A stretch of DNA of 64,000 bases from NCBI RefSeq assembly GCF_003790525.1, contig NZ_CP033635.1; one strand, written 5' to 3'. Numbering within the stretch: the stretch's first letter is position 1; each line of letters starts with the position of its first letter. The notes beneath the pieces were generated by a model that saw only the letters and a program-made list of their open reading frames with translations, was not told the origin of the DNA and did no database searches. Origin of the DNA: Escherichia coli. Its GTDB lineage: Bacteria > Pseudomonadota > Gammaproteobacteria > Enterobacterales > Enterobacteriaceae. Made by a program: the position numbers and the translations under genes. Of the stretch, positions 8,698-48,095 are shown in pieces.

Positions 8698-9300
8698 TGT
8701 AGTAATCTCAAACTTATATTGGGGTGGTTTGTTGAGGTAATAATAGAGCCTTAAATTCAGTTGTGCAATAGCCAGGAATGTAAGGAATTCAAAATTGTTC
8801 TTTATTTTGTGCCGCCAATAAATATCTTTTCATAAAATTAGCCAGAAAAGACGCGGCATATAGCCCTATTTGCACCGATGATTTCGCAGCACGTGAGGTT
8901 AAAACTTCCTGATTCATGTCACATTTTATGGGGAGATTATCGTAGGCTGACGACCTTTCAGTCTTCTGTATTAGTCGTGTTTACGAGAATTCCCTATTAA
9001 GCGAATGATGAAAAGTAGAACAGTCGCAATAAGAGCAGGGACTTAGTATTGCACTATCTCCAGGAGGTCAACAGAGGGCTATTACTTGCGCAACAGGTTA
9101 AAGATTGTGAATAGTTACCAGCAGTCATTTACCCGCTTATAACAAGCGAGGCAGTTGTAATGATAGCTCAGAAGGATTATGCAAGGCTTCGTAAGGGAGA
9201 ACGCATATACCACTTCTGTGCATACTGTTGAGCTGAAAAACTGACGAATTATGATAAACTCCAGCCAACTTTAATTCATATCATTGAGGGCCTGTGGCTG

Positions 9301-37005: not shown

Positions 37006-37227
37006 TCACCATGCCTCCGCCTTTACAGGTAAACCATCACGACCGAGGAAGACTTTAATCATGCGGTCAGTAATGCATGTTTTTGTAGTGAAATCACGGA
37101 TATAAAGTTTTTGCTTTTCGATATTGTTTGCCGATGCAACATATGTCCGGCCTTCGTAAATAACGTAATCGCCGGGAGTGACGCACTGGCGTGGTATTTC
37201 ATCGGTTCCGAAGTGATGAGCAATCAT
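37006..37227 (-). CDS. hypothetical phage protein
   Basis: 73 aa ORF with strong RBS aaggag 7 nt upstream of ATG. Confidence 0.55.
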
Positions 37228-37272
37228 AATAATCTCCTTAATAATTTGTGATATGAAGGAAATTCCAGAAAA

Positions 37273-39665: not shown

Positions 39666-39947
39666 ATGGAAGAATTAAGAATATTTCTCAATTCTCTTTC
39701 GTCAGATGAACAGCGTATGTTTGCATGTGAGTGTGGTACTAGCATCGGTTATCTAAGAAAGGCATTGAGTAAAGGTCAAATGTTAGGGGCATCGTTATGT
39801 GTCCTTATTGAGCGAGCCAGTAATGGTGAAGTTACACGTCAGCAACTAAGGCCTTTTGATTGGATGAATATTTGGCCCGAGCTGGAAGATACCAAAACGT
39901 TAACACAACCACTTACTAGGAGCTTGATTCATGAAAATCAAGCATGA
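39666..39947 (+). CDS. Cro-like transcriptional regulator (YdaS family)
   Basis: 93 aa, RBS aaggag, divergent from repressor, similar to Rac YdaS. Confidence 0.7.
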   Translation: MEELRIFLNSLSSDEQRMFACECGTSIGYLRKALSKGQMLGASLCVLIERASNGEVTRQQLRPFDWMNIWPELEDTKTLTQPLTRSLIHENQA

Positions 39948-40356
39948 ACACATCCGCATGGCGATGAATGCCTGGGCGCGTCCTGATGGCGAAAAAGTTC
40001 CGGCAGCTGAAATAACCCGGGCTTATTTTGAGCTGGGTATGACGTTCCCGGAACTGTATGACGACAGCCATCCCGAAGCCCTGGCCCGTAATACCCAGAA
40101 AATTTTCCGCTGGGTGGAGAAAGACACCCCTGATGCGGTTGTAAAAATTCAGGCGTTACTACCAGCGATCGAAAAGGCAATGCCGCCTTTGCTGGTGGCC
40201 AGAATGCGTAGCCACAGCTCAGCCTATTTCAGGGAGCTGCTGGAGACACGAGAACGGCTGGTGAGAGACGCTGATGATTTTATCGCAGTGGCAATCGCCG
40301 GTTTCAATCAGATGAATCGTGGTGGCCCGGCGGGTAATGCTGTGGTGATGCACTGA
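39931..40356 (+). CDS. YdaT-like regulatory protein (CII-like position)
   Basis: 141 aa ORF overlapping the cro-like stop; arrangement as in Rac ydaS-ydaT. Confidence 0.6.
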   Translation: MKIKHEHIRMAMNAWARPDGEKVPAAEITRAYFELGMTFPELYDDSHPEALARNTQKIFRWVEKDTPDAVVKIQALLPAIEKAMPPLLVARMRSHSSAYFRELLETRERLVRDADDFIAVAIAGFNQMNRGGPAGNAVVMH

Positions 40357-40426: not shown

Positions 40427-41437
40427 ATGGCCGCATTACCATACATGCAACTGTACATCGCTGATTACCTGGCTGACACCATGCATTTATCAGCAGAGGA
40501 GCACGGTGCGTATTTGTTGCTGATGTTCAATTACTGGCAAACAGGAAAGCCAATACCTAAAAACAGGCTGGCAAAAATTGCCCGTCTGACTAATGAGCGA
40601 TGGGCTGATGTGGAGCCATCCTTGCGGGAGTTTTTTCACGATAACGGCGATGAATGGGTGCATCTTCGGATTGAGGAAGATCTGGCATCAGTCAGGGAAA
40701 AATTAACCAAAAAATCAGCCGCCGGAAAAGCATCTGTTCAGGCCAGAAGAAGCAGAAAGGAAGCAGATGTTCAAACAAAACAAGAGAGAGATTTAACAGG
40801 TGTTCAAACAAATGTTGGTGTGGTGTTTGAACATAACGCAAACACAAAGGCAACTAATAAAGATACAGATAAAGAATTAAACCCCACACATAACGCGCGC
40901 GTGCGCGAGAGTGCTCCGACCAGTGAACCGAACGGTACGCCGTTGCAGGTGGCGGAACCTGAATTTCCGGATGGCCTGAGTGAACCCATCGGGAAATTTC
41001 CGATGGCCGATGGCTGGCATCCGTCGCTGGATTTTCGACGACGGGCTGCGTTGTGGGGAGCAGCTTTGCCGGAACCGGAATTTACACCTGCTGAACTTGC
41101 CGCCTTCCGGGATTACTGGATGGCGGAGGGGAAAGTGTTCACACAGGTTCAGTGGGAGCAGAAATTCGCCCGTCACGTAAATCACGTCAGGGCGCAGGTT
41201 AAACCAGTCAGCAAGGGGGTGAACCATGCAGCAGCACCAGGTGGCACCGCATCACGGGCAGTTCAGGAAATTCGGGCAGCACGTGAGCAGTGGGAACGTG
41301 AAAACGGATTTTTCAGCGACGGAAACAGCCTGGAAGCTGTGGGAACTCATGGGGGAGGTTTATTCGGACCGCTGGACCCGGAAGAACGGGACCGCACCTT
41401 CGAAGCTCTGGATTGCACAGATTGGTGCGATGACTGA
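40427..41437 (+). CDS. replication initiation-associated protein (YdaU/DUF1376-like N-terminus)
   Basis: 336 aa; N-terminus MAALPYMQLYIADYLADTMHLSAEEHGAYLLLMFNYWQTGKP typical of DUF1376. Confidence 0.65.
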   Translation: MAALPYMQLYIADYLADTMHLSAEEHGAYLLLMFNYWQTGKPIPKNRLAKIARLTNERWADVEPSLREFFHDNGDEWVHLRIEEDLASVREKLTKKSAAGKASVQARRSRKEADVQTKQERDLTGVQTNVGVVFEHNANTKATNKDTDKELNPTHNARVRESAPTSEPNGTPLQVAEPEFPDGLSEPIGKFPMADGWHPSLDFRRRAALWGAALPEPEFTPAELAAFRDYWMAEGKVFTQVQWEQKFARHVNHVRAQVKPVSKGVNHAAAPGGTASRAVQEIRAAREQWERENGFFSDGNSLEAVGTHGGGLFGPLDPEERDRTFEALDCTDWCDD

Positions 41438-41891
41438 GCAGCAAATCCGGCAGGTCTGCCGCCAGTGCATGGACCGCTGCCGGGCGGGTGAAACATGGCC
41501 TCCTGACCTGGCTGAGTTTGTGGCGCTGATTTCTGAAAGCGGAGCCAATCCATTCGGTCTGACGTTGGATGCCGTGATGGAGGAGTACCGTCGCTGGCGC
41601 AACGAGTCCTGGCGATACGACGGGAGCGATAAATACCCGTGGTCTCAGCCTGTGCTGTATCACATATGCCTCGAGATGCGTTCAAAGGGGATTGAGCGGC
41701 AGATGACCGAAGGGGAGTTAAAACGGCTTGCAGAACGGCAACTGACGAAATGGTCAAAGCATGTTGGTATGGGCCTCAGCGTTCCGCCAGTCCGGCGACA
41801 ACTGGCGGCCCCCAAACGCCCGTCGGGACCAACGCCAATTGAGTTGCTGAAACAGGAGTATGAACGCCGGAAAGCGGCTGGTTTTGTCTGA
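41430..41891 (+). CDS. replication protein P-like (helicase loader-like)
   Basis: ATGA start/stop overlap with upstream gene; alternative in-frame starts at 41226 and 41349 would overlap the upstream gene. Confidence 0.5.
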   Translation: MTEQQIRQVCRQCMDRCRAGETWPPDLAEFVALISESGANPFGLTLDAVMEEYRRWRNESWRYDGSDKYPWSQPVLYHICLEMRSKGIERQMTEGELKRLAERQLTKWSKHVGMGLSVPPVRRQLAAPKRPSGPTPIELLKQEYERRKAAGFV

Positions 41892-44148: not shown

Positions 44149-44317
44149 TTTTGGTTCAACTAAATACAACGTCAGTTTTGAAGAATGGCATGAACTGTTA
44201 ATGGATTATGCAGAGTTACGTGGTGGAAGTGCTGCTGATGCTGAAGCCTGGCGTGATGACTACGAAGCAGGAAAAACTCCGGTCGAAGCATATTGTGATG
44301 AGTGGGGCGATGAATGA
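44141..44317 (+). CDS. small phage protein
   Basis: 58 aa ORF (MADFGSTKYNVSFEEWHELL...) found by manual translation, below the ORF-track cutoff; overlaps neighbours at both ends (ATGA at 3' end). Confidence 0.4.
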   Translation: MADFGSTKYNVSFEEWHELLMDYAELRGGSAADAEAWRDDYEAGKTPVEAYCDEWGDE

Positions 44318-44829
44318 GCGAGATTAATTATCAGGAAGGGCATGAAATGGCAGGGCAGGCAAAACCAGTTGCATGGCGATATCGCTACGTGAAAAAAGGC
44401 GTTACGGACTTTCAGGAGAAGATGTGGGTTGGTGACTGGAAATATGTACCGACAAAAGAGGATTGCAACGACAGGCCGAGCTATGAGATTCAGGCCTTAT
44501 TCACTGCCCCGTCAGTCCCGGTGACATCAGAAGGACTGGTTAAAGCCGTGCGCTTTTATGAACAGGTAAAGCGTGAGAATCCACCAGTCGAAACAGGAGC
44601 ATGGAAAGATGCTGTTGATTGGGTGCTCAAAGAGGCCTGCTGTGCTGTCATTCTGAGTAAAGCCGACAATCCACTGGCATCCAGTAATCAGGTTGGCGAA
44701 TTAACAATGTGGGTTAAACGACTGGTCAGTCAACTGAAAAAAGCTCAGCCGGACTGCAAATTACCGGAGAAGGCGATGGATTACCTGAAACGAAATGGAC
44801 TGATAAGCGCGGAGGATATTTTACGATGA
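44314..44829 (+). CDS. Ea22/ead-like protein, paralog 3
   Basis: N-terminus MSEINYQEGHEMAG shares the conserved start of the two upstream paralogs; C-terminal part differs. Confidence 0.6.
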   Translation: MSEINYQEGHEMAGQAKPVAWRYRYVKKGVTDFQEKMWVGDWKYVPTKEDCNDRPSYEIQALFTAPSVPVTSEGLVKAVRFYEQVKRENPPVETGAWKDAVDWVLKEACCAVILSKADNPLASSNQVGELTMWVKRLVSQLKKAQPDCKLPEKAMDYLKRNGLISAEDILR

Positions 44830-45033
44830 CCTGGCCTGAAGCATTCACAACGGCAGGAATTGCAATGGCGGAGGCGCTGGTGATGTATTCTATTTGCGGT
44901 TGGGGATAAATCGTTGAAAAAAGCTCCCGACACAAACATGAGTCGGGAGCTTTGATTTATATGGCTTACGAATCCGCCAGCAAGAGAGCGGGCGGACATT
45001 TTATTCTAACACCGGAATTCTGTGGGGACAAGT

Positions 45034-45333
45034 TTATAAGAAATCGGTTTCATAACTTTGTCCGCCATGATAAACACCTGCGATAAAGACTTTATTGTCA
45101 TCAACGGCAAAAGCAATAATCGTTCTGTGGCGGAAATGAGTTACCCGCATCCCCTGGCGAATATCATCGCGTTTATTGCCCCGATGCGGAAATGCAGAAA
45201 ACCCATCAAGATAATCAAGAAGCGCATTGGCATAATTGTCAGCAATGACGCCTCCTGCTTTCTCCGTTATATATCTGTGCAGGTTTATTATCTGCTGTTC
45301 GGCCTCGGGGGTAATGATGACTTCAAATGTCAT
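45034..45333 (-). CDS. parE: type II toxin, RelE/ParE family
   Basis: 99 aa ParE-like pattern; 5 bp downstream of antitoxin gene. Confidence 0.7.
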   Translation of the reverse strand: MTFEVIITPEAEQQIINLHRYITEKAGGVIADNYANALLDYLDGFSAFPHRGNKRDDIRQGMRVTHFRHRTIIAFAVDDNKVFIAGVYHGGQSYETDFL

Positions 45334-45338
45334 GCAGA

Positions 45339-45596
45339 CTACTTCCCGGATCTAATCGCGGCGCGAACCTGTGAAATGGAGCGTCCGTTGTTTGGGTTTT
45401 CGCGGATAGAATCAAGAGAGGGGGCGACTGAATGCGTTAACCACGCTTCGATTGCTTTATCGCGCTCATTCAGTGCGCGAAGCCCTTCACGAATGACCTC
45501 GCTTTCTGAAGCATAGGCACCGGAAGCCACACGGGAGCGCACCATGTCAGCCATCTCGTTAGTTAATGTAATACTGAATTGTTGGGTTGTACGCAT
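45339..45596 (-). CDS. parD: type II antitoxin, ParD/ribbon-helix-helix family
   Basis: start at MRTTQQFSITL (RBS gtgagg); RHH motif SESEVIREGLRALNERDKAIEAWL. Confidence 0.7.
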   Translation of the reverse strand: MRTTQQFSITLTNEMADMVRSRVASGAYASESEVIREGLRALNERDKAIEAWLTHSVAPSLDSIRENPNNGRSISQVRAAIRSGK

Positions 45597-45731
45597 GGTA
45601 AACCTCACGGAGTAGGATAGAACACCATTCGATGATAGCACGCTGCCTGTTGACGACAACAGAAATCAGAGACAATATTGCCTCCAGCCAGCCTGAACAA
45701 CTGGCACCTGCTGCGCCAGCAGAGACAACGG

Positions 45732-46010
45732 ATGGCGCACGATACCAGATTACACAATTCTGATAATCTCGCCGTCTTTGCCAGCAGGCACGGGCGGCAT
45801 TCACACGCATTCAAATCTGACTGGTTCCGGCATGATCCATGTACTGAAGAACAGGCAGAGTGGCTAATTCAGAACTACCGCAGACGTGGTTACGAGTTTC
45901 AGAAAGACCTAAGTCTTGACCGCCTGTACTGGATCATCTCCGTCAGGCTCCCTTATTCCGAACGCCCACCGCGTCCATCCCGCACGTACCAGCAACGGAT
46001 CTGGAGGTAA
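45732..46010 (+). CDS. hypothetical phage protein (nin-region)
   Basis: ORF preceding DUF968 gene; start uncertain (ATG at 45732 or upstream TTG at 45678). Confidence 0.35.
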   Translation: MAHDTRLHNSDNLAVFASRHGRHSHAFKSDWFRHDPCTEEQAEWLIQNYRRRGYEFQKDLSLDRLYWIISVRLPYSERPPRPSRTYQQRIWR

Positions 46011-47064: not shown

Positions 47065-47430
47065 ATGACTGAACACATAGAATTTGTTTTGCCTTACCCG
47101 CCAACGGTGAATACTTACTGGCGACGTCGTGGCAGCACATATTTTGTATCAAAAGTCGGTGAACGTTATCGCCGGGATGTGGCGTTAATTGTTCGCCAAC
47201 AGCGGTTGAAATTAAACCTGTCCGGAAGGCTGGCAATAAAAATTATTGCAGAGCCACCGGATAAGCGCCGCCGCGACCTGGACAATATCCTGAAGGCACC
47301 ACTGGATGCACTGACGCATGCCGGACTATTCATAGACGACGAGCAGTTTGATGAAATTAATATTGTGCGCGGTCAGCCCGTTCCTGGTGGGCGGCTGGGG
47401 ATAAAAATCACAGAACTGGAGTGCGCATGA
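47065..47430 (+). CDS. rusA: Holliday junction resolvase RusA
   Basis: 121 aa with conserved RRDLDNILKAPLDAL motif. Confidence 0.85.
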   Translation: MTEHIEFVLPYPPTVNTYWRRRGSTYFVSKVGERYRRDVALIVRQQRLKLNLSGRLAIKIIAEPPDKRRRDLDNILKAPLDALTHAGLFIDDEQFDEINIVRGQPVPGGRLGIKITELECA

Positions 47431-48095
47431 ATAACCAGTATTTACAGTTTGTGCGTGAGCAGCTCATTATCGCCACCGCTGATTTGAGTGGGGCAACAAA
47501 AGGTCAGCTTGAAGCCTGGCAGGAGAATGCCATGTTCGATACAGGGCGTTACAGGCGTAAAAAAATCCGGTACCGCGATGAAGTGACTGGAAAAATGATA
47601 ACGCGGGATAATCCACCAATCCCGGGAAAACAATCGCTGGCGAAAGGCTCATCAATTGCCCTGGTCAGCCCGGTTGAGTTTTCGACATCATCATGGCGGC
47701 GGGCGGTTCTGTCTATTGAAGAACATCAGAAAGCCTGGTTGTTGTGGTGTTACAGCGGGAGTATTTGCTGGGAGTATCAGGTCACTATAACCCACTGGGC
47801 ATGGGAAGAGTTTAAGGCCCATTGTGGCAACAGGAAAATTGCAGAGAAAACACGGGAACGCCTGAAAAAATTAATCTGGCTGGCGGCGCAGGCAGTAAAA
47901 GCAGAAATTTTTGGTAAGGAAGGTTACGAATACCAGGATCTGGCATTACTGGCGGGAGTGACAGCCAAAAACTGGTCCAAAACATTTACTGGTCACTGGA
48001 TTGCAATGAAACACATTTTTCACCGGCTGGATAGTGAGGCTTTATTGTTTGTGACGAGAACACGTTCAAAACAAAAGGCGGCATTTTCACAGTAA
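47427..48095 (+). CDS. late-gene antiterminator Q-like protein
   Basis: ATGA overlap with rusA stop; sits before a promoter-terminator pair and the lysis genes, the lambdoid Q position. Confidence 0.6.
   Translation: MNNQYLQFVREQLIIATADLSGATKGQLEAWQENAMFDTGRYRRKKIRYRDEVTGKMITRDNPPIPGKQSLAKGSSIALVSPVEFSTSSWRRAVLSIEEHQKAWLLWCYSGSICWEYQVTITHWAWEEFKAHCGNRKIAEKTRERLKKLIWLAAQAVKAEIFGKEGYEYQDLALLAGVTAKNWSKTFTGHWIAMKHIFHRLDSEALLFVTRTRSKQKAAFSQ

Follow-up and report, generated by a model that had tools for sequence, protein, structure and literature searches.

A predicted ParD/ParE toxin-antitoxin operon in the hok slot of an Escherichia coli lambdoid prophage

Introduction

The known systems closest to the locus analysed here are the classical ParDE toxin-antitoxin (TA) systems, which include RK2 ParDE, Caulobacter crescentus ParD1-ParE1 (3KXE), Vibrio cholerae ParD2-ParE2 (7R5A), M. 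tuberculosis ParDE1 (8C24) and Mesorhizobium ParDE (5CEG/6X0A). Some ParE-fold toxins, for instance E. coli O157 ParE2 of the PaaA2-ParE2 system, reportedly lack a gyrase action like that of RK2 ParE. Gyrase is reportedly poisoned by most of the characterised ParE toxins (PMC11925232).

ParE-fold toxins are also encoded by prophages. The ParE_SO/CopA_SO pair of the Shewanella prophage CP4So is described as keeping the excised prophage maintained (PMC8706911), and PfiT/PfiA of the Pseudomonas prophage Pf4 is a TA pair that inhibits Pf4 production (PMC7264888). In E. coli O157:H7, the prophage-encoded system is PaaR2-PaaA2-ParE2.

Lambdoid prophages harbour other TA modules as well. In the cryptic prophage Qin of E. 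coli K-12, the gene order is relB-relE-hokD-rem-(hypothetical)-ydfU(DUF968)-ydfT(Q). The hok/sok system consists of a membrane-damaging peptide under the control of an antisense RNA and is classically an addiction module. Here, we report on a parDE pair that stands where hok is usually found.

Results

Organisation of the locus

In the window, that is, the whole 64-kb stretch of E. coli DNA that was analysed, the minus strand carries an antitoxin gene, parD (45339..45596; 85 aa, ATG at 45596), followed after a 5-bp spacer (TCTGC) by a toxin gene, parE (45034..45333; 99 aa). The pair lies between the replication gene P (41430..41891) and Q (47427..48095), which corresponds to the nin-equivalent position. 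Its left neighbours are annotated as Ea22-like genes and its right neighbours as a 279-bp ORF, DUF968, RusA and Q, and its orientation opposes that of the flanking phage genes. The initial annotation had proposed, for 45034-45596, a minus-strand ParD/ParE pair made of a ribbon-helix-helix (RHH) antitoxin and a RelE/ParE-fold toxin, lying in the nin region between the Ea22-like genes and DUF968/RusA/Q. Both ORFs were found at these coordinates, the annotation of the P to Q interval agrees with the placement, and HMMs, a profile search of the PDB and fold searches back the nature of the two proteins.

RefSeq (PGAP) entries identical to the two proteins are named "type II toxin-antitoxin system RelE/ParE family toxin" (WP_029400502.1) and "ParD family antitoxin" (WP_029400504.1). 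No plausible ORF for a third component, comparable to those of paaR2-paaA2-parE2, follows parE in the ORF list of the locus. Because the adjacent partner genes are both HMM-supported and their synteny is kept in four genera, the pair is far beyond what chance would produce, and we are highly confident that it is a genuine TA module. It is also an ordinary one, recognised by automated pipelines and already labelled ParD/ParE in public E. coli annotations.

The antitoxin

The antitoxin matches both the Pfam family ParD_antitoxin (PF03693; E 4.8e-8, 33.8 bits for a curated cut-off of 21) and the NCBIfam model for ParD family antitoxins (TIGR02606; E 3.6e-15, 55.8 for a cut-off of 46.2). Its sequence matches in the PDB are the ParD antitoxins 3kxe_C, 7b22, 7ycv and 8c24_C. 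The AF2 model (pLDDT 81) displays an extended N-terminus followed by helices at residues 13-24, 31-66 and 74-82, and the ten best Foldseek matches to this model are all ParD-type antitoxins (TMt 0.75-0.88). In these superpositions, the N-terminal 41-56 residues overlie the ParD RHH domains, with an rmsd of 0.9-1.4 A in most matches and 24-38% identity to those domains in the solved structures. A model of the monomer would be expected to lack the RHH strand, as this one does, since the fold becomes complete only in the dimer. When the four genera are aligned, residues 1-53 hardly vary. Altogether, the modelled N-terminus of ParD is an RHH DNA-binding domain, and the helical C-terminal region would bind the toxin.

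Relationship of the toxin to ParE and RelE proteins

The toxin aligns with the Pfam family ParE_toxin (PF05016) over profile positions 1-89 of 89 (E 8.3e-10, 39.6 bits for a curated cut-off of 23). The NCBIfam search returned no matching model for it, the only matches being spurious ones to SepCysS (E > 0.03). Its affiliation to ParE in the PDB was weak in a single-sequence search (6x0a at E 0.005), and a profile built from 84 family members was needed to reveal it. With this profile, the strong matches are exclusively of the ParE type. They are 6x0a (4.9e-12), 8c24, 7ycs, 5ceg, 3kxe, 6xrw, 5cw7 and 7r5a. The AF2 model of the toxin (pLDDT 91.2) comprises strands at residues 4-7, 62-67, 71-78 and 81-89 and helices at 9-26 and 28-46. 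The 23 best Foldseek matches to it are all ParE-type toxins.

These data bear on whether the toxin could be a ribosome-dependent mRNA endonuclease of the RelE type, which would make the module a functional equivalent of Qin relBE. Both PF05016 and the PGAP name span RelE as well as ParE, the overall fold is common to the two, and BLASTP gives a weak alignment with K-12 RelE (62 residues, E 0.089). Nonetheless, in the profile search eight distinct ParE-family sequences rank ahead of one weak RelE/StbE match. The RNase-type toxins YoeB, RelE, YafQ and HigB score TMq 0.43-0.65 on the model, as compared with 0.72-0.84 for ParE proteins. Moreover, the antitoxin is of the ParD type and gives no alignment with Qin RelB. 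We thus regard a RelE-like activity as highly improbable, and the toxin very likely sits in the ParE branch, not the RNase branch, of the RelE/ParE superfamily.

Membership of this branch does not by itself designate a target. The toxin shares no more than 12-23% identity with any structurally characterised ParE, so that the target of the latter is not transferable to it with confidence. It could thus combine a ParE fold with a non-gyrase target, for instance in the control of replication or phage production in the manner of PfiT/PfiA of Pf4 or of PrpT/PrpA. Indeed, PfiT (9w3a) and PrpT (7ycs) are among its best structural matches, their TMq of 0.82-0.84 equalling that of gyrase-poisoning ParE proteins, and the Pf4 pair provides a prophage-borne precedent for such a role. 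PfiT and O157 ParE2 each match the toxin at TMq about 0.8, with 17-19% identity. Against this stand the predominance of gyrase poisons among the characterised ParE toxins (PMC11925232) and the identity of the partner, a classical ParD (TIGR02606, Caulobacter CC2985 type) as in gyrase-targeting systems. Altogether, a non-gyrase target appears rather unlikely, and by analogy with the family we lean slightly towards gyrase as the target.

Transcription signals

A consensus scan predicted a sigma-70 promoter for parDE at 45632..45659 on the minus strand, with a -35 hexamer TTGTCG (45659..45654), a 16-nt spacer and an extended -10 element TGc-TATCAT (45637..45632). When the upstream regions of the E. 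coli, Yersinia, Salmonella and Enterobacter loci were aligned, the TGnTA...T positions of this promoter were invariant, and the DNA farther upstream was unrelated. The leader between promoter and parD (45597..45631, minus strand) is mostly invariant in the four genera (TGTTC.ATCC..T...TGAG) and contains a Shine-Dalgarno sequence, GAGG (45606..45603), 6 nt before the parD ATG. These features suggest that parDE has its own functional promoter.

The palindrome CTGTTG-ACGA-CAACAG (45647..45662), read from the sequence, overlaps the -35 hexamer and is a candidate ParD operator. The pattern CTGTTG-N4-CAACAG occurs once in the 64-kb window, a count to be read with the fact that the pattern was picked after being seen. 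Its core GTCGTCAA is invariant across genera, and the outer bases of the arms vary without compensation, which makes the assignment as an operator weak. Another palindrome, GAGACAATATTGCCTC (45669..45684), was rejected as an operator, since the DNA shared with phage ArgO145 and with the other genera does not extend to it.

On the 3′ side, a strong hairpin (44917..44953) is bordered by a run of T on the minus strand and, on the plus strand, by a tract rich in T. Folding of the RNA of 44900..45036 (minus strand) gave an MFE of -44.7 kcal/mol (z -5.97), a value matched by none of 200 shuffled sequences. The stem is formed by AAAGCUCCCGAC and GUCGGGAGCUUU and is followed by UUUUUU. In ArgO145 the hairpin is kept, and the three base changes in its two stem arms still allow pairing. 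It is therefore a probable bidirectional terminator, serving both parDE and the converging plus-strand operon. The terminator scan had overlooked it because its loop exceeds 8 nt. That scan had also proposed a weak site at 45667..45686, in which we do not believe; the folding of the 3′ region settled the question. A second G+C-rich hairpin, with a GUCCGCC...GGCGGAU stem, lies in the parE 3′ untranslated region (44972..44997, minus strand).

In the cassette as it occurs in E. coli, the plus strand also contains a small hydrophobic ORF of 27 aa (MTWPEAFTTAGIAMAEALVMYSICGWG; 44826..44909), the ATG of which overlaps the stop codon of the upstream gene. Since 4 of its 27 residues are changed in ArgO145, constraint on it looks weak, and it is doubtful that it is a real gene.

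Conservation and mobility of the cassette

The cassette is found in about 6% of complete E. coli genomes, as well as in phage ArgO145 and in Stx2a phages. Compared by blastn with Yersinia, Salmonella and Enterobacter loci (L011-L019), it is 66-71% identical from 45048-45051 to 45657-45692, with no match outside. The minimal conserved module common to these genera, composed of the promoter, parD and parE, thus corresponds to 45048..45667 on the minus strand. In all three the antitoxin gene precedes the toxin gene, with a 5-bp gap or a 4-bp overlap, and one Salmonella locus has an additional HTH ORF. The unit occurs there at differing places of mobile elements, and such recurrence in several genera indicates a self-contained mobile cassette. 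In our view parDE is probably a type II ParD/ParE operon sufficient unto itself, a "moron" within a lambdoid prophage integrated beside ompW.

Could the module nonetheless be an inert passenger, a TA pair either in decay or neutralised for good and now devoid of function? The host prophage does contain pseudogenes (a partial DicB, and truncated Ea22-like and HNH genes), and databases contain a handful of truncated forms of the toxin (P0027-P0031). Several observations speak against decay. Both ORFs are intact, and their dN/dS relative to ArgO145, 0.155 for parD and 0.19 for parE (about 0.15-0.19), is that of genes under purifying selection, as judged from this comparison. The near-invariant residues of the toxin family (A31, P49, G52, R55, R63 and G91) are all kept, and full-length copies prevail in the protein clusters, one of which alone has 508 member sequences. 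To this is added the conservation of promoter and leader across genera. An inert passenger is, in our opinion, very unlikely.

A cargo slot usually occupied by hok

When the locus was aligned with that of a hokD-carrying prophage (L009), homology ended at the stop codon of the left gene (44829) and restarted at 45687. The intervening 857 bp (44830..45686) are unrelated and stand in place of the hok/sok region, the swapped segments being similar in size (about 0.86-0.88 kb). No hok homologue was found anywhere in the 64-kb window, and hok or hokD occupies the slot upstream of the 279-bp ORF/DUF968/RusA/Q genes in 14 of 15 sampled related loci. The right flank, the 279-bp ORF/DUF968 block, is present in 4306 of 5426 E. 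coli genomes, at 8713 places. The 279-bp ORF is not rem: PPompW_132418, L026 and L027 have both genes, rem being the upstream one.

Among the sampled loci, the cargo consists of hokD; hokD and rem; gef, rem and paa; relBE, hokD and rem; hokD with an ImmA/IrrE pair; a hok remnant; or parDE. The slot is a variable cargo hotspot of lambdoid prophages, with conserved flanks and alternative, non-homologous cargo. The initial annotation had viewed parDE as a cassette swapped at a conserved hotspot where Qin carries relBE. The K-12 relBE genes do lie shortly before the same DUF968 and Q genes, and the homologous flanks enclosing 857 unrelated bp bear out the swap. The alternative partner has to be amended. 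As hokD is the usual resident, and as relBE of Qin was added to hokD rather than replacing it, the exchange is one of hokD for parDE.

The diversity of the cargo in the slot and its surroundings, which in phage Tritos includes an ImmA/IrrE-HTH pair, could suggest that parDE serves mainly in anti-phage defence, by aborting infections or excluding superinfecting phages when infection cuts the supply of ParD. TA modules are known as defence systems, and with its predicted promoter and terminator parDE would be transcribed independently of the phage operons and hence be on in the lysogen. Yet a search against the PADLOC-DB v2 defence models gave no match for the toxin and a chance-level one for the antitoxin (LmuB, E 0.025), and our literature search found no report of ParDE-mediated defence for the parDE family. 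The replaced module is, moreover, classically one of addiction. Defence as the main role therefore seems unlikely to us.

A more speculative reading, to which we give little credit, is that the slot is a dedicated "addiction slot" of lambdoid prophages. Mechanistically unrelated killers, hok (type I), relBE (type II) and parDE (type II), would interchange and replace one another there because the phage needs a post-segregational or induction-sensing killer at exactly this place. At induction, N-antiterminated rightward transcription would run past the bidirectional terminator and shut off the promoter of parDE. The opposed orientation of parDE would make such silencing possible, and the lytic switch would thereby govern when ParE is released.

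Discussion

By analogy with the ParDE family, we can propose the following scheme for the module. ParD dimers would bind an operator in the promoter and repress the operon, and the C-terminal helices of ParD would wrap around ParE and neutralise it. Once ParD synthesis stops, the labile antitoxin would be degraded, and free ParE would arrest growth, most probably by poisoning DNA gyrase. Cells or recombinants losing the parDE part of the prophage would thus be penalised, a selfish role that is the one expected of the replaced hok/sok. A side effect on superinfecting phages is conceivable. For chromosomal TA modules, measurable stabilisation is often absent. We therefore put forward addiction, or stabilisation of the prophage, only tentatively as the main role of parDE, at somewhat less than even confidence.

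Our literature search on ArgO145, PPompW and ParE in lambdoid or Stx phages found no experimental characterisation of the module. The EHEC phages phi346 and phi349 were reported to carry an "orphan ParD antitoxin" (PMC12502783). If this gene belongs to the parDE cassette, the adjoining toxin was simply overlooked. The value of the present analysis is modest and goes little beyond correct annotation. It does show that the near-universal hokD slot before DUF968/RusA/Q can be occupied by an unrelated type II module, and that this ParE lineage is distant from every characterised one. In addition, the hokD and parDE versions constitute a natural pair of otherwise similar prophages with which the benefit of TA modules to prophages could be tested.

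The module resembles the classical ParDE systems in its antitoxin-toxin order, in the small size of both proteins and in the RHH N-terminus and helical C-terminus of its antitoxin. The modelled toxin also has the fold of classical ParE, with two N-terminal helices and a three-stranded sheet. It differs from these systems in being carried by a lambdoid prophage and not by a plasmid, a superintegron or the core of a chromosome.

With relBE-hokD (relBEF) of Qin, parDE shares the same lambdoid slot, directly upstream of rem/279-bp ORF/DUF968(ydfU)/Q, and the nature of a type II TA system with a toxin of the RelE/ParE superfamily. However, Qin RelE is an RNase, whereas the toxin described here falls in the ParE branch. 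Likewise, relBE is co-directional with the phage genes and coexists with hokD, while parDE is reversed and hok is absent. As for hok/sok (hokD/gef), it has in common with parDE its position by the 279-bp ORF/DUF968/RusA/Q genes and its presumed addiction role, but the mechanisms are entirely different, since in parDE toxin and antitoxin are both proteins, the second neutralising the first.

Finally, parDE joins ParE_SO/CopA_SO, PfiT/PfiA and PaaR2-PaaA2-ParE2 as a prophage-encoded system with a ParE-fold toxin. CopA_SO and PaaA2 belong to other antitoxin families, whereas the antitoxin described here is a classical ParD, and PaaR2-PaaA2-ParE2 has three components where parDE has two.

A parD/parE pair in the nin-equivalent region of a lambdoid prophage

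On the minus strand, a parD antitoxin gene (45339..45596, 85 aa, ATG at 45596) is followed after 5 bp (TCTGC) by a parE toxin gene (45034..45333, 99 aa), the second of the two adjacent ORFs. The parE product covers the whole Pfam profile PF05016 (ParE_toxin; E 8.3e-10, 39.6 bits for a cut-off of 23), and the parD product matches both PF03693 (ParD_antitoxin; 33.8 bits, cut-off 21) and TIGR02606, the NCBIfam model of ParD family antitoxins (55.8 bits vs 46.2, E 3.6e-15). Together with the ORFs, these matches uphold the coordinates, strand and families proposed in the initial annotation. In PHROGs, toxin and antitoxin fall into phrog_5232 (‘toxin’, 2.2e-40) and phrog_6494 (‘antitoxin’, 3.5e-55), and RefSeq labels them ‘type II toxin-antitoxin system RelE/ParE family toxin’ (WP_029400502.1) and ‘ParD family antitoxin’ (WP_029400504.1). 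We regard parDE as a genuine toxin-antitoxin (TA) pair with high confidence. Our literature search found no experimental characterisation of it: the family is well known, this member is uncharacterised, and pipelines already label it correctly.

The pair is housed in a lambdoid prophage adjoining ompW. From the left, this prophage carries int, xis, exonuclease, kil, Rha, a cI/cro-like region, DUF1376, P (41430..41891) and DUF1627, then two Ea22-like genes, DUF7167, two small genes and, on the opposite strand, parE and parD, and finally a 279-bp ORF (45732..46010), DUF968, RusA, Q (47427..48095), tRNAs, lysis genes and terminase. This order bears out the nin-region placement made earlier, the pair sitting between P and Q. 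The same prophage harbours further growth-inhibitory functions, namely a ‘transcriptional regulator’ gene followed by one annotated ‘toxin YdaT family protein’ (39666..40356, plus strand), and a kil gene of the Rac type (37007..37228, minus strand).

Left of the cassette, a 171-aa gene (44314..44829, plus strand) opens with the SEINYQ motif of the neighbouring Ea22-like proteins; it is intact in the window, whereas in the sampled hokD-carrying prophages a frameshift or internal deletion has made it a pseudogene (2294..2610 in L009, the one aligned to the window, and 1295..1611 in L024, a further relative). Its stop is overlapped by the ATG of a 27-aa hydrophobic ORF (44826..44909, plus strand; MTWPEAFTTAGIAMAEALVMYSICGWG), which ends just short of a probable bidirectional terminator. 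This ORF accompanies the E. coli version of the cassette, including that of phage ArgO145, and may not be a real gene since 4 of its 27 residues are changed. To the right, the 279-bp ORF (plus strand; phrog_1212, function unknown) always directly precedes DUF968, and this block is present in 4306 of 5426 complete E. coli genomes, at 8713 places, with up to 9 per genome. One phage record calls the ORF ‘toxin to Rem’ without evidence; its identity with rem was ruled out, rem being a separate gene upstream of it in some prophages.

The toxin and the ParE family

As PF05016 and the PGAP name span both branches of the superfamily, assignment to ParE or RelE was put to the test. An exhaustive HMMER search retrieved 1084 cluster representatives (E <= 0.001), and an alignment of 84 full-length relatives served both for a profile search of the PDB and for an AlphaFold model. 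The well-scoring PDB matches were ParE-type toxins only: 6x0a was the best (4.9e-12), and the others were M. tuberculosis ParE1 (8c24), PrpT (7ycs), 5ceg, Caulobacter ParE1 (3kxe), P. aeruginosa 6xrw, E. coli O157 ParE2 (5cw7) and Vibrio ParE2 (7r5a), with a single weak match to RelE/StbE. The toxin model is confident (pLDDT 91.2); its best 23 Foldseek matches in the PDB are all ParE-type toxins (TMq 0.72-0.84), as compared with TMq 0.43-0.65 for YoeB, RelE, YafQ and HigB. The window toxin also has all of A31, P49, G52, R55, R63 and G91, which are near-invariant in the family. In the antitoxin model, the N-terminus is extended, with helices at 13-24, 31-66 and 74-82; residues 1 to 41-56 superpose on the ribbon-helix-helix (RHH) domains of ParD proteins (TMt 0.75-0.88), and all ten best structural matches are ParD-type. 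The toxin thus very likely belongs to the ParE branch, and the profile and fold results speak against its being a RelE-like RNase. It shares no more than 12-23% of its residues with any solved ParE, and it is a distinct lineage inside the family.

Expression signals and proposed mechanism

Upstream of parD, we predict a minus-strand promoter with a -35 TTGTCG (45659..45654), a 16-nt spacer and an extended -10 TGc-TATCAT (45637..45632); a Shine-Dalgarno GAGG lies 6 nt 5′ of the parD ATG. A 16-bp palindrome, CTGTTGACGACAACAG (45647..45662), overlaps the -35. It occurs once in the window, which is no test as the pattern was chosen after being seen, and its outer bases display no compensated conservation in the alignment of upstream regions across loci, so that its assignment as a candidate operator is still a guess. 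About 80 nt 3′ of parE, a predicted, very stable RNA hairpin followed by a U-run (44920..44953 for the hairpin) lies within a 137-nt region with a predicted fold of -44.7 kcal/mol (z -5.97). The complement of the hairpin precedes a T-rich tract, so the converging plus-strand genes are probably terminated there too. A consensus terminator scan missed this hairpin because of its loop length.

What is shown is the anatomy of the module; its mechanism we infer from the family. ParD dimers would bind the promoter via the RHH domain and repress it, and the C-terminal helices of ParD would neutralise ParE; should the supply of ParD fail, ParE would be released and halt growth, with the poisoning of gyrase as the most probable means. 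How ParE toxins act and how parDE operons regulate themselves is described in PMC11925232 and PMC10776004. For the present toxin we lean towards gyrase as the target; a different target would also suit the predicted structure, which PfiT and PrpT match equally well.

A self-contained mobile cassette

The parDE region is 100% identical in the chromosomes of E. coli TUM1886, GF60 and LR-31 and in NZ_OY754357.1, and a 901-bp query around the pair is found, at a coverage of at least 80%, in 327 of 5426 complete E. coli genomes. The cassette is also carried by Stx2a phages such as ArgO145 (92.6% identity), whose record names the genes toxin and antitoxin. That record (NC_049918.1, 6439..6645 on our L002 locus) gives the antitoxin 207 bp; its start codon was probably mis-called and the true reading would be 258 bp (85 aa), as judged from an upstream ATG, a Shine-Dalgarno and N-terminal residues kept in all relatives. 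Between the window and ArgO145, parE differs by 13 synonymous and 10 non-synonymous changes (dN/dS 0.19) and parD by 4 and 2 (dN/dS 0.155), counts that are small and consistent with purifying selection on both genes. The protein clusters consist mostly of full-length versions (508 sequences in one cluster), with few truncated variants. Selection and conservation speak against the pair being an inert passenger.

Relatives at 61-72% toxin identity were located on their source contigs. The Yersinia pair occupies a prophage early-left region, with antirepressor, ERF and integrase genes on one side and SieB/repressor on the other; in Salmonella, it is immediately downstream of Q and convergent with it; in Enterobacter ludwigii, it lies within an IS-rich island. 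In all of them a ParD gene (85-88 aa) directly precedes the toxin gene, and nucleotide similarity to the window is limited to 45048..45667, that is promoter, parD and parE. In the upstream alignment, the extended -10 (TGnTA...T) and the block GTCGTCAA are invariant, as is the greater part of the leader, whereas the DNA farther upstream is unrelated among loci. Conserved promoter and leader with unrelated flanks are the mark of a self-contained mobile cassette, and on these alignments parDE appears to move as such from one position to another in temperate phages and islands. Within prophages it is opposed to, or convergent with, the neighbouring phage genes. One Salmonella enterica locus (AADFEG010000011.1; L019 5281..5568) has a 95-aa ORF with a weak HTH_3 match, overlapping the 3′ end of the parE homologue in the same direction and absent from the window and two other Salmonella loci; this locus may represent a version of the module with three genes.

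‘Orphan’ ParD and HigA antitoxins were described in EHEC phages phi346 and phi349, with a speculated anti-defence role (PMC12502783). This ParD may belong to the present cassette, its toxin gene having been overlooked; if so, a cognate, uncalled ParE gene probably adjoins it.

Replacement of hok and comparison with Qin

K-12 Qin carries relB-relE-hokD-rem upstream of ydfU (DUF968) and ydfT (Q), and a query with the 279-bp ORF/DUF968 block gives an 80% match to this K-12 region, so the parallel first drawn with Qin holds. The proposed cassette swap at a conserved hotspot stands as a replacement, but with hokD rather than relBE as the default resident. Indeed, among 15 sampled loci that share the right-hand 279-bp ORF/DUF968 block and lack parDE, 14 have a member of the hok family (hokD, gef or ‘host killer’) immediately upstream of the block, accompanied in some by rem, paa/adfO or an ImmA/IrrE-HTH pair; in the remaining one, the hok region is reduced to a remnant. 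Alignment with a hokD-carrying prophage having both flanks in common places one breakpoint at 44829/44830, directly behind the stop codon that closes the left-hand gene, and the other at 45686/45687, with ~0.86 kb of unrelated DNA between them in each prophage. No hok homologue was found in a search of the whole window. ArgO145 has the E. coli version of the cassette in its early-left region, beside an antirepressor, sharing with the window the DNA from the 3′ end of an Ea22-like-type gene to 45679; the cassette is therefore not bound to the hok slot. Phage Tritos (L007 2183..3939) and another relative (L023 418..2152) have a two-gene insert between hokD and the 279-bp ORF, encoding a hypothetical protein and an ImmA/IrrE metallopeptidase with an HTH domain, which suggests that the slot also accepts candidate defence or regulatory cargo. 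Useful by-products of this analysis are a map of the replacement of hokD by parDE and a defined minimal mobile unit.

Since parDE replaces hok/sok and has its own predicted promoter and terminator, addiction is the simplest role: loss of this part of the prophage would be penalised. We put it forward tentatively as the main role. ParE_SO/CopA_SO has such a role for the excised CP4So prophage (PMC8706911). A role in phage defence gains no support from the PADLOC library. Compared with the known system, Qin relBE was added alongside hokD in the same direction as the phage genes, whereas parDE takes the place of hok and runs in the opposite direction.
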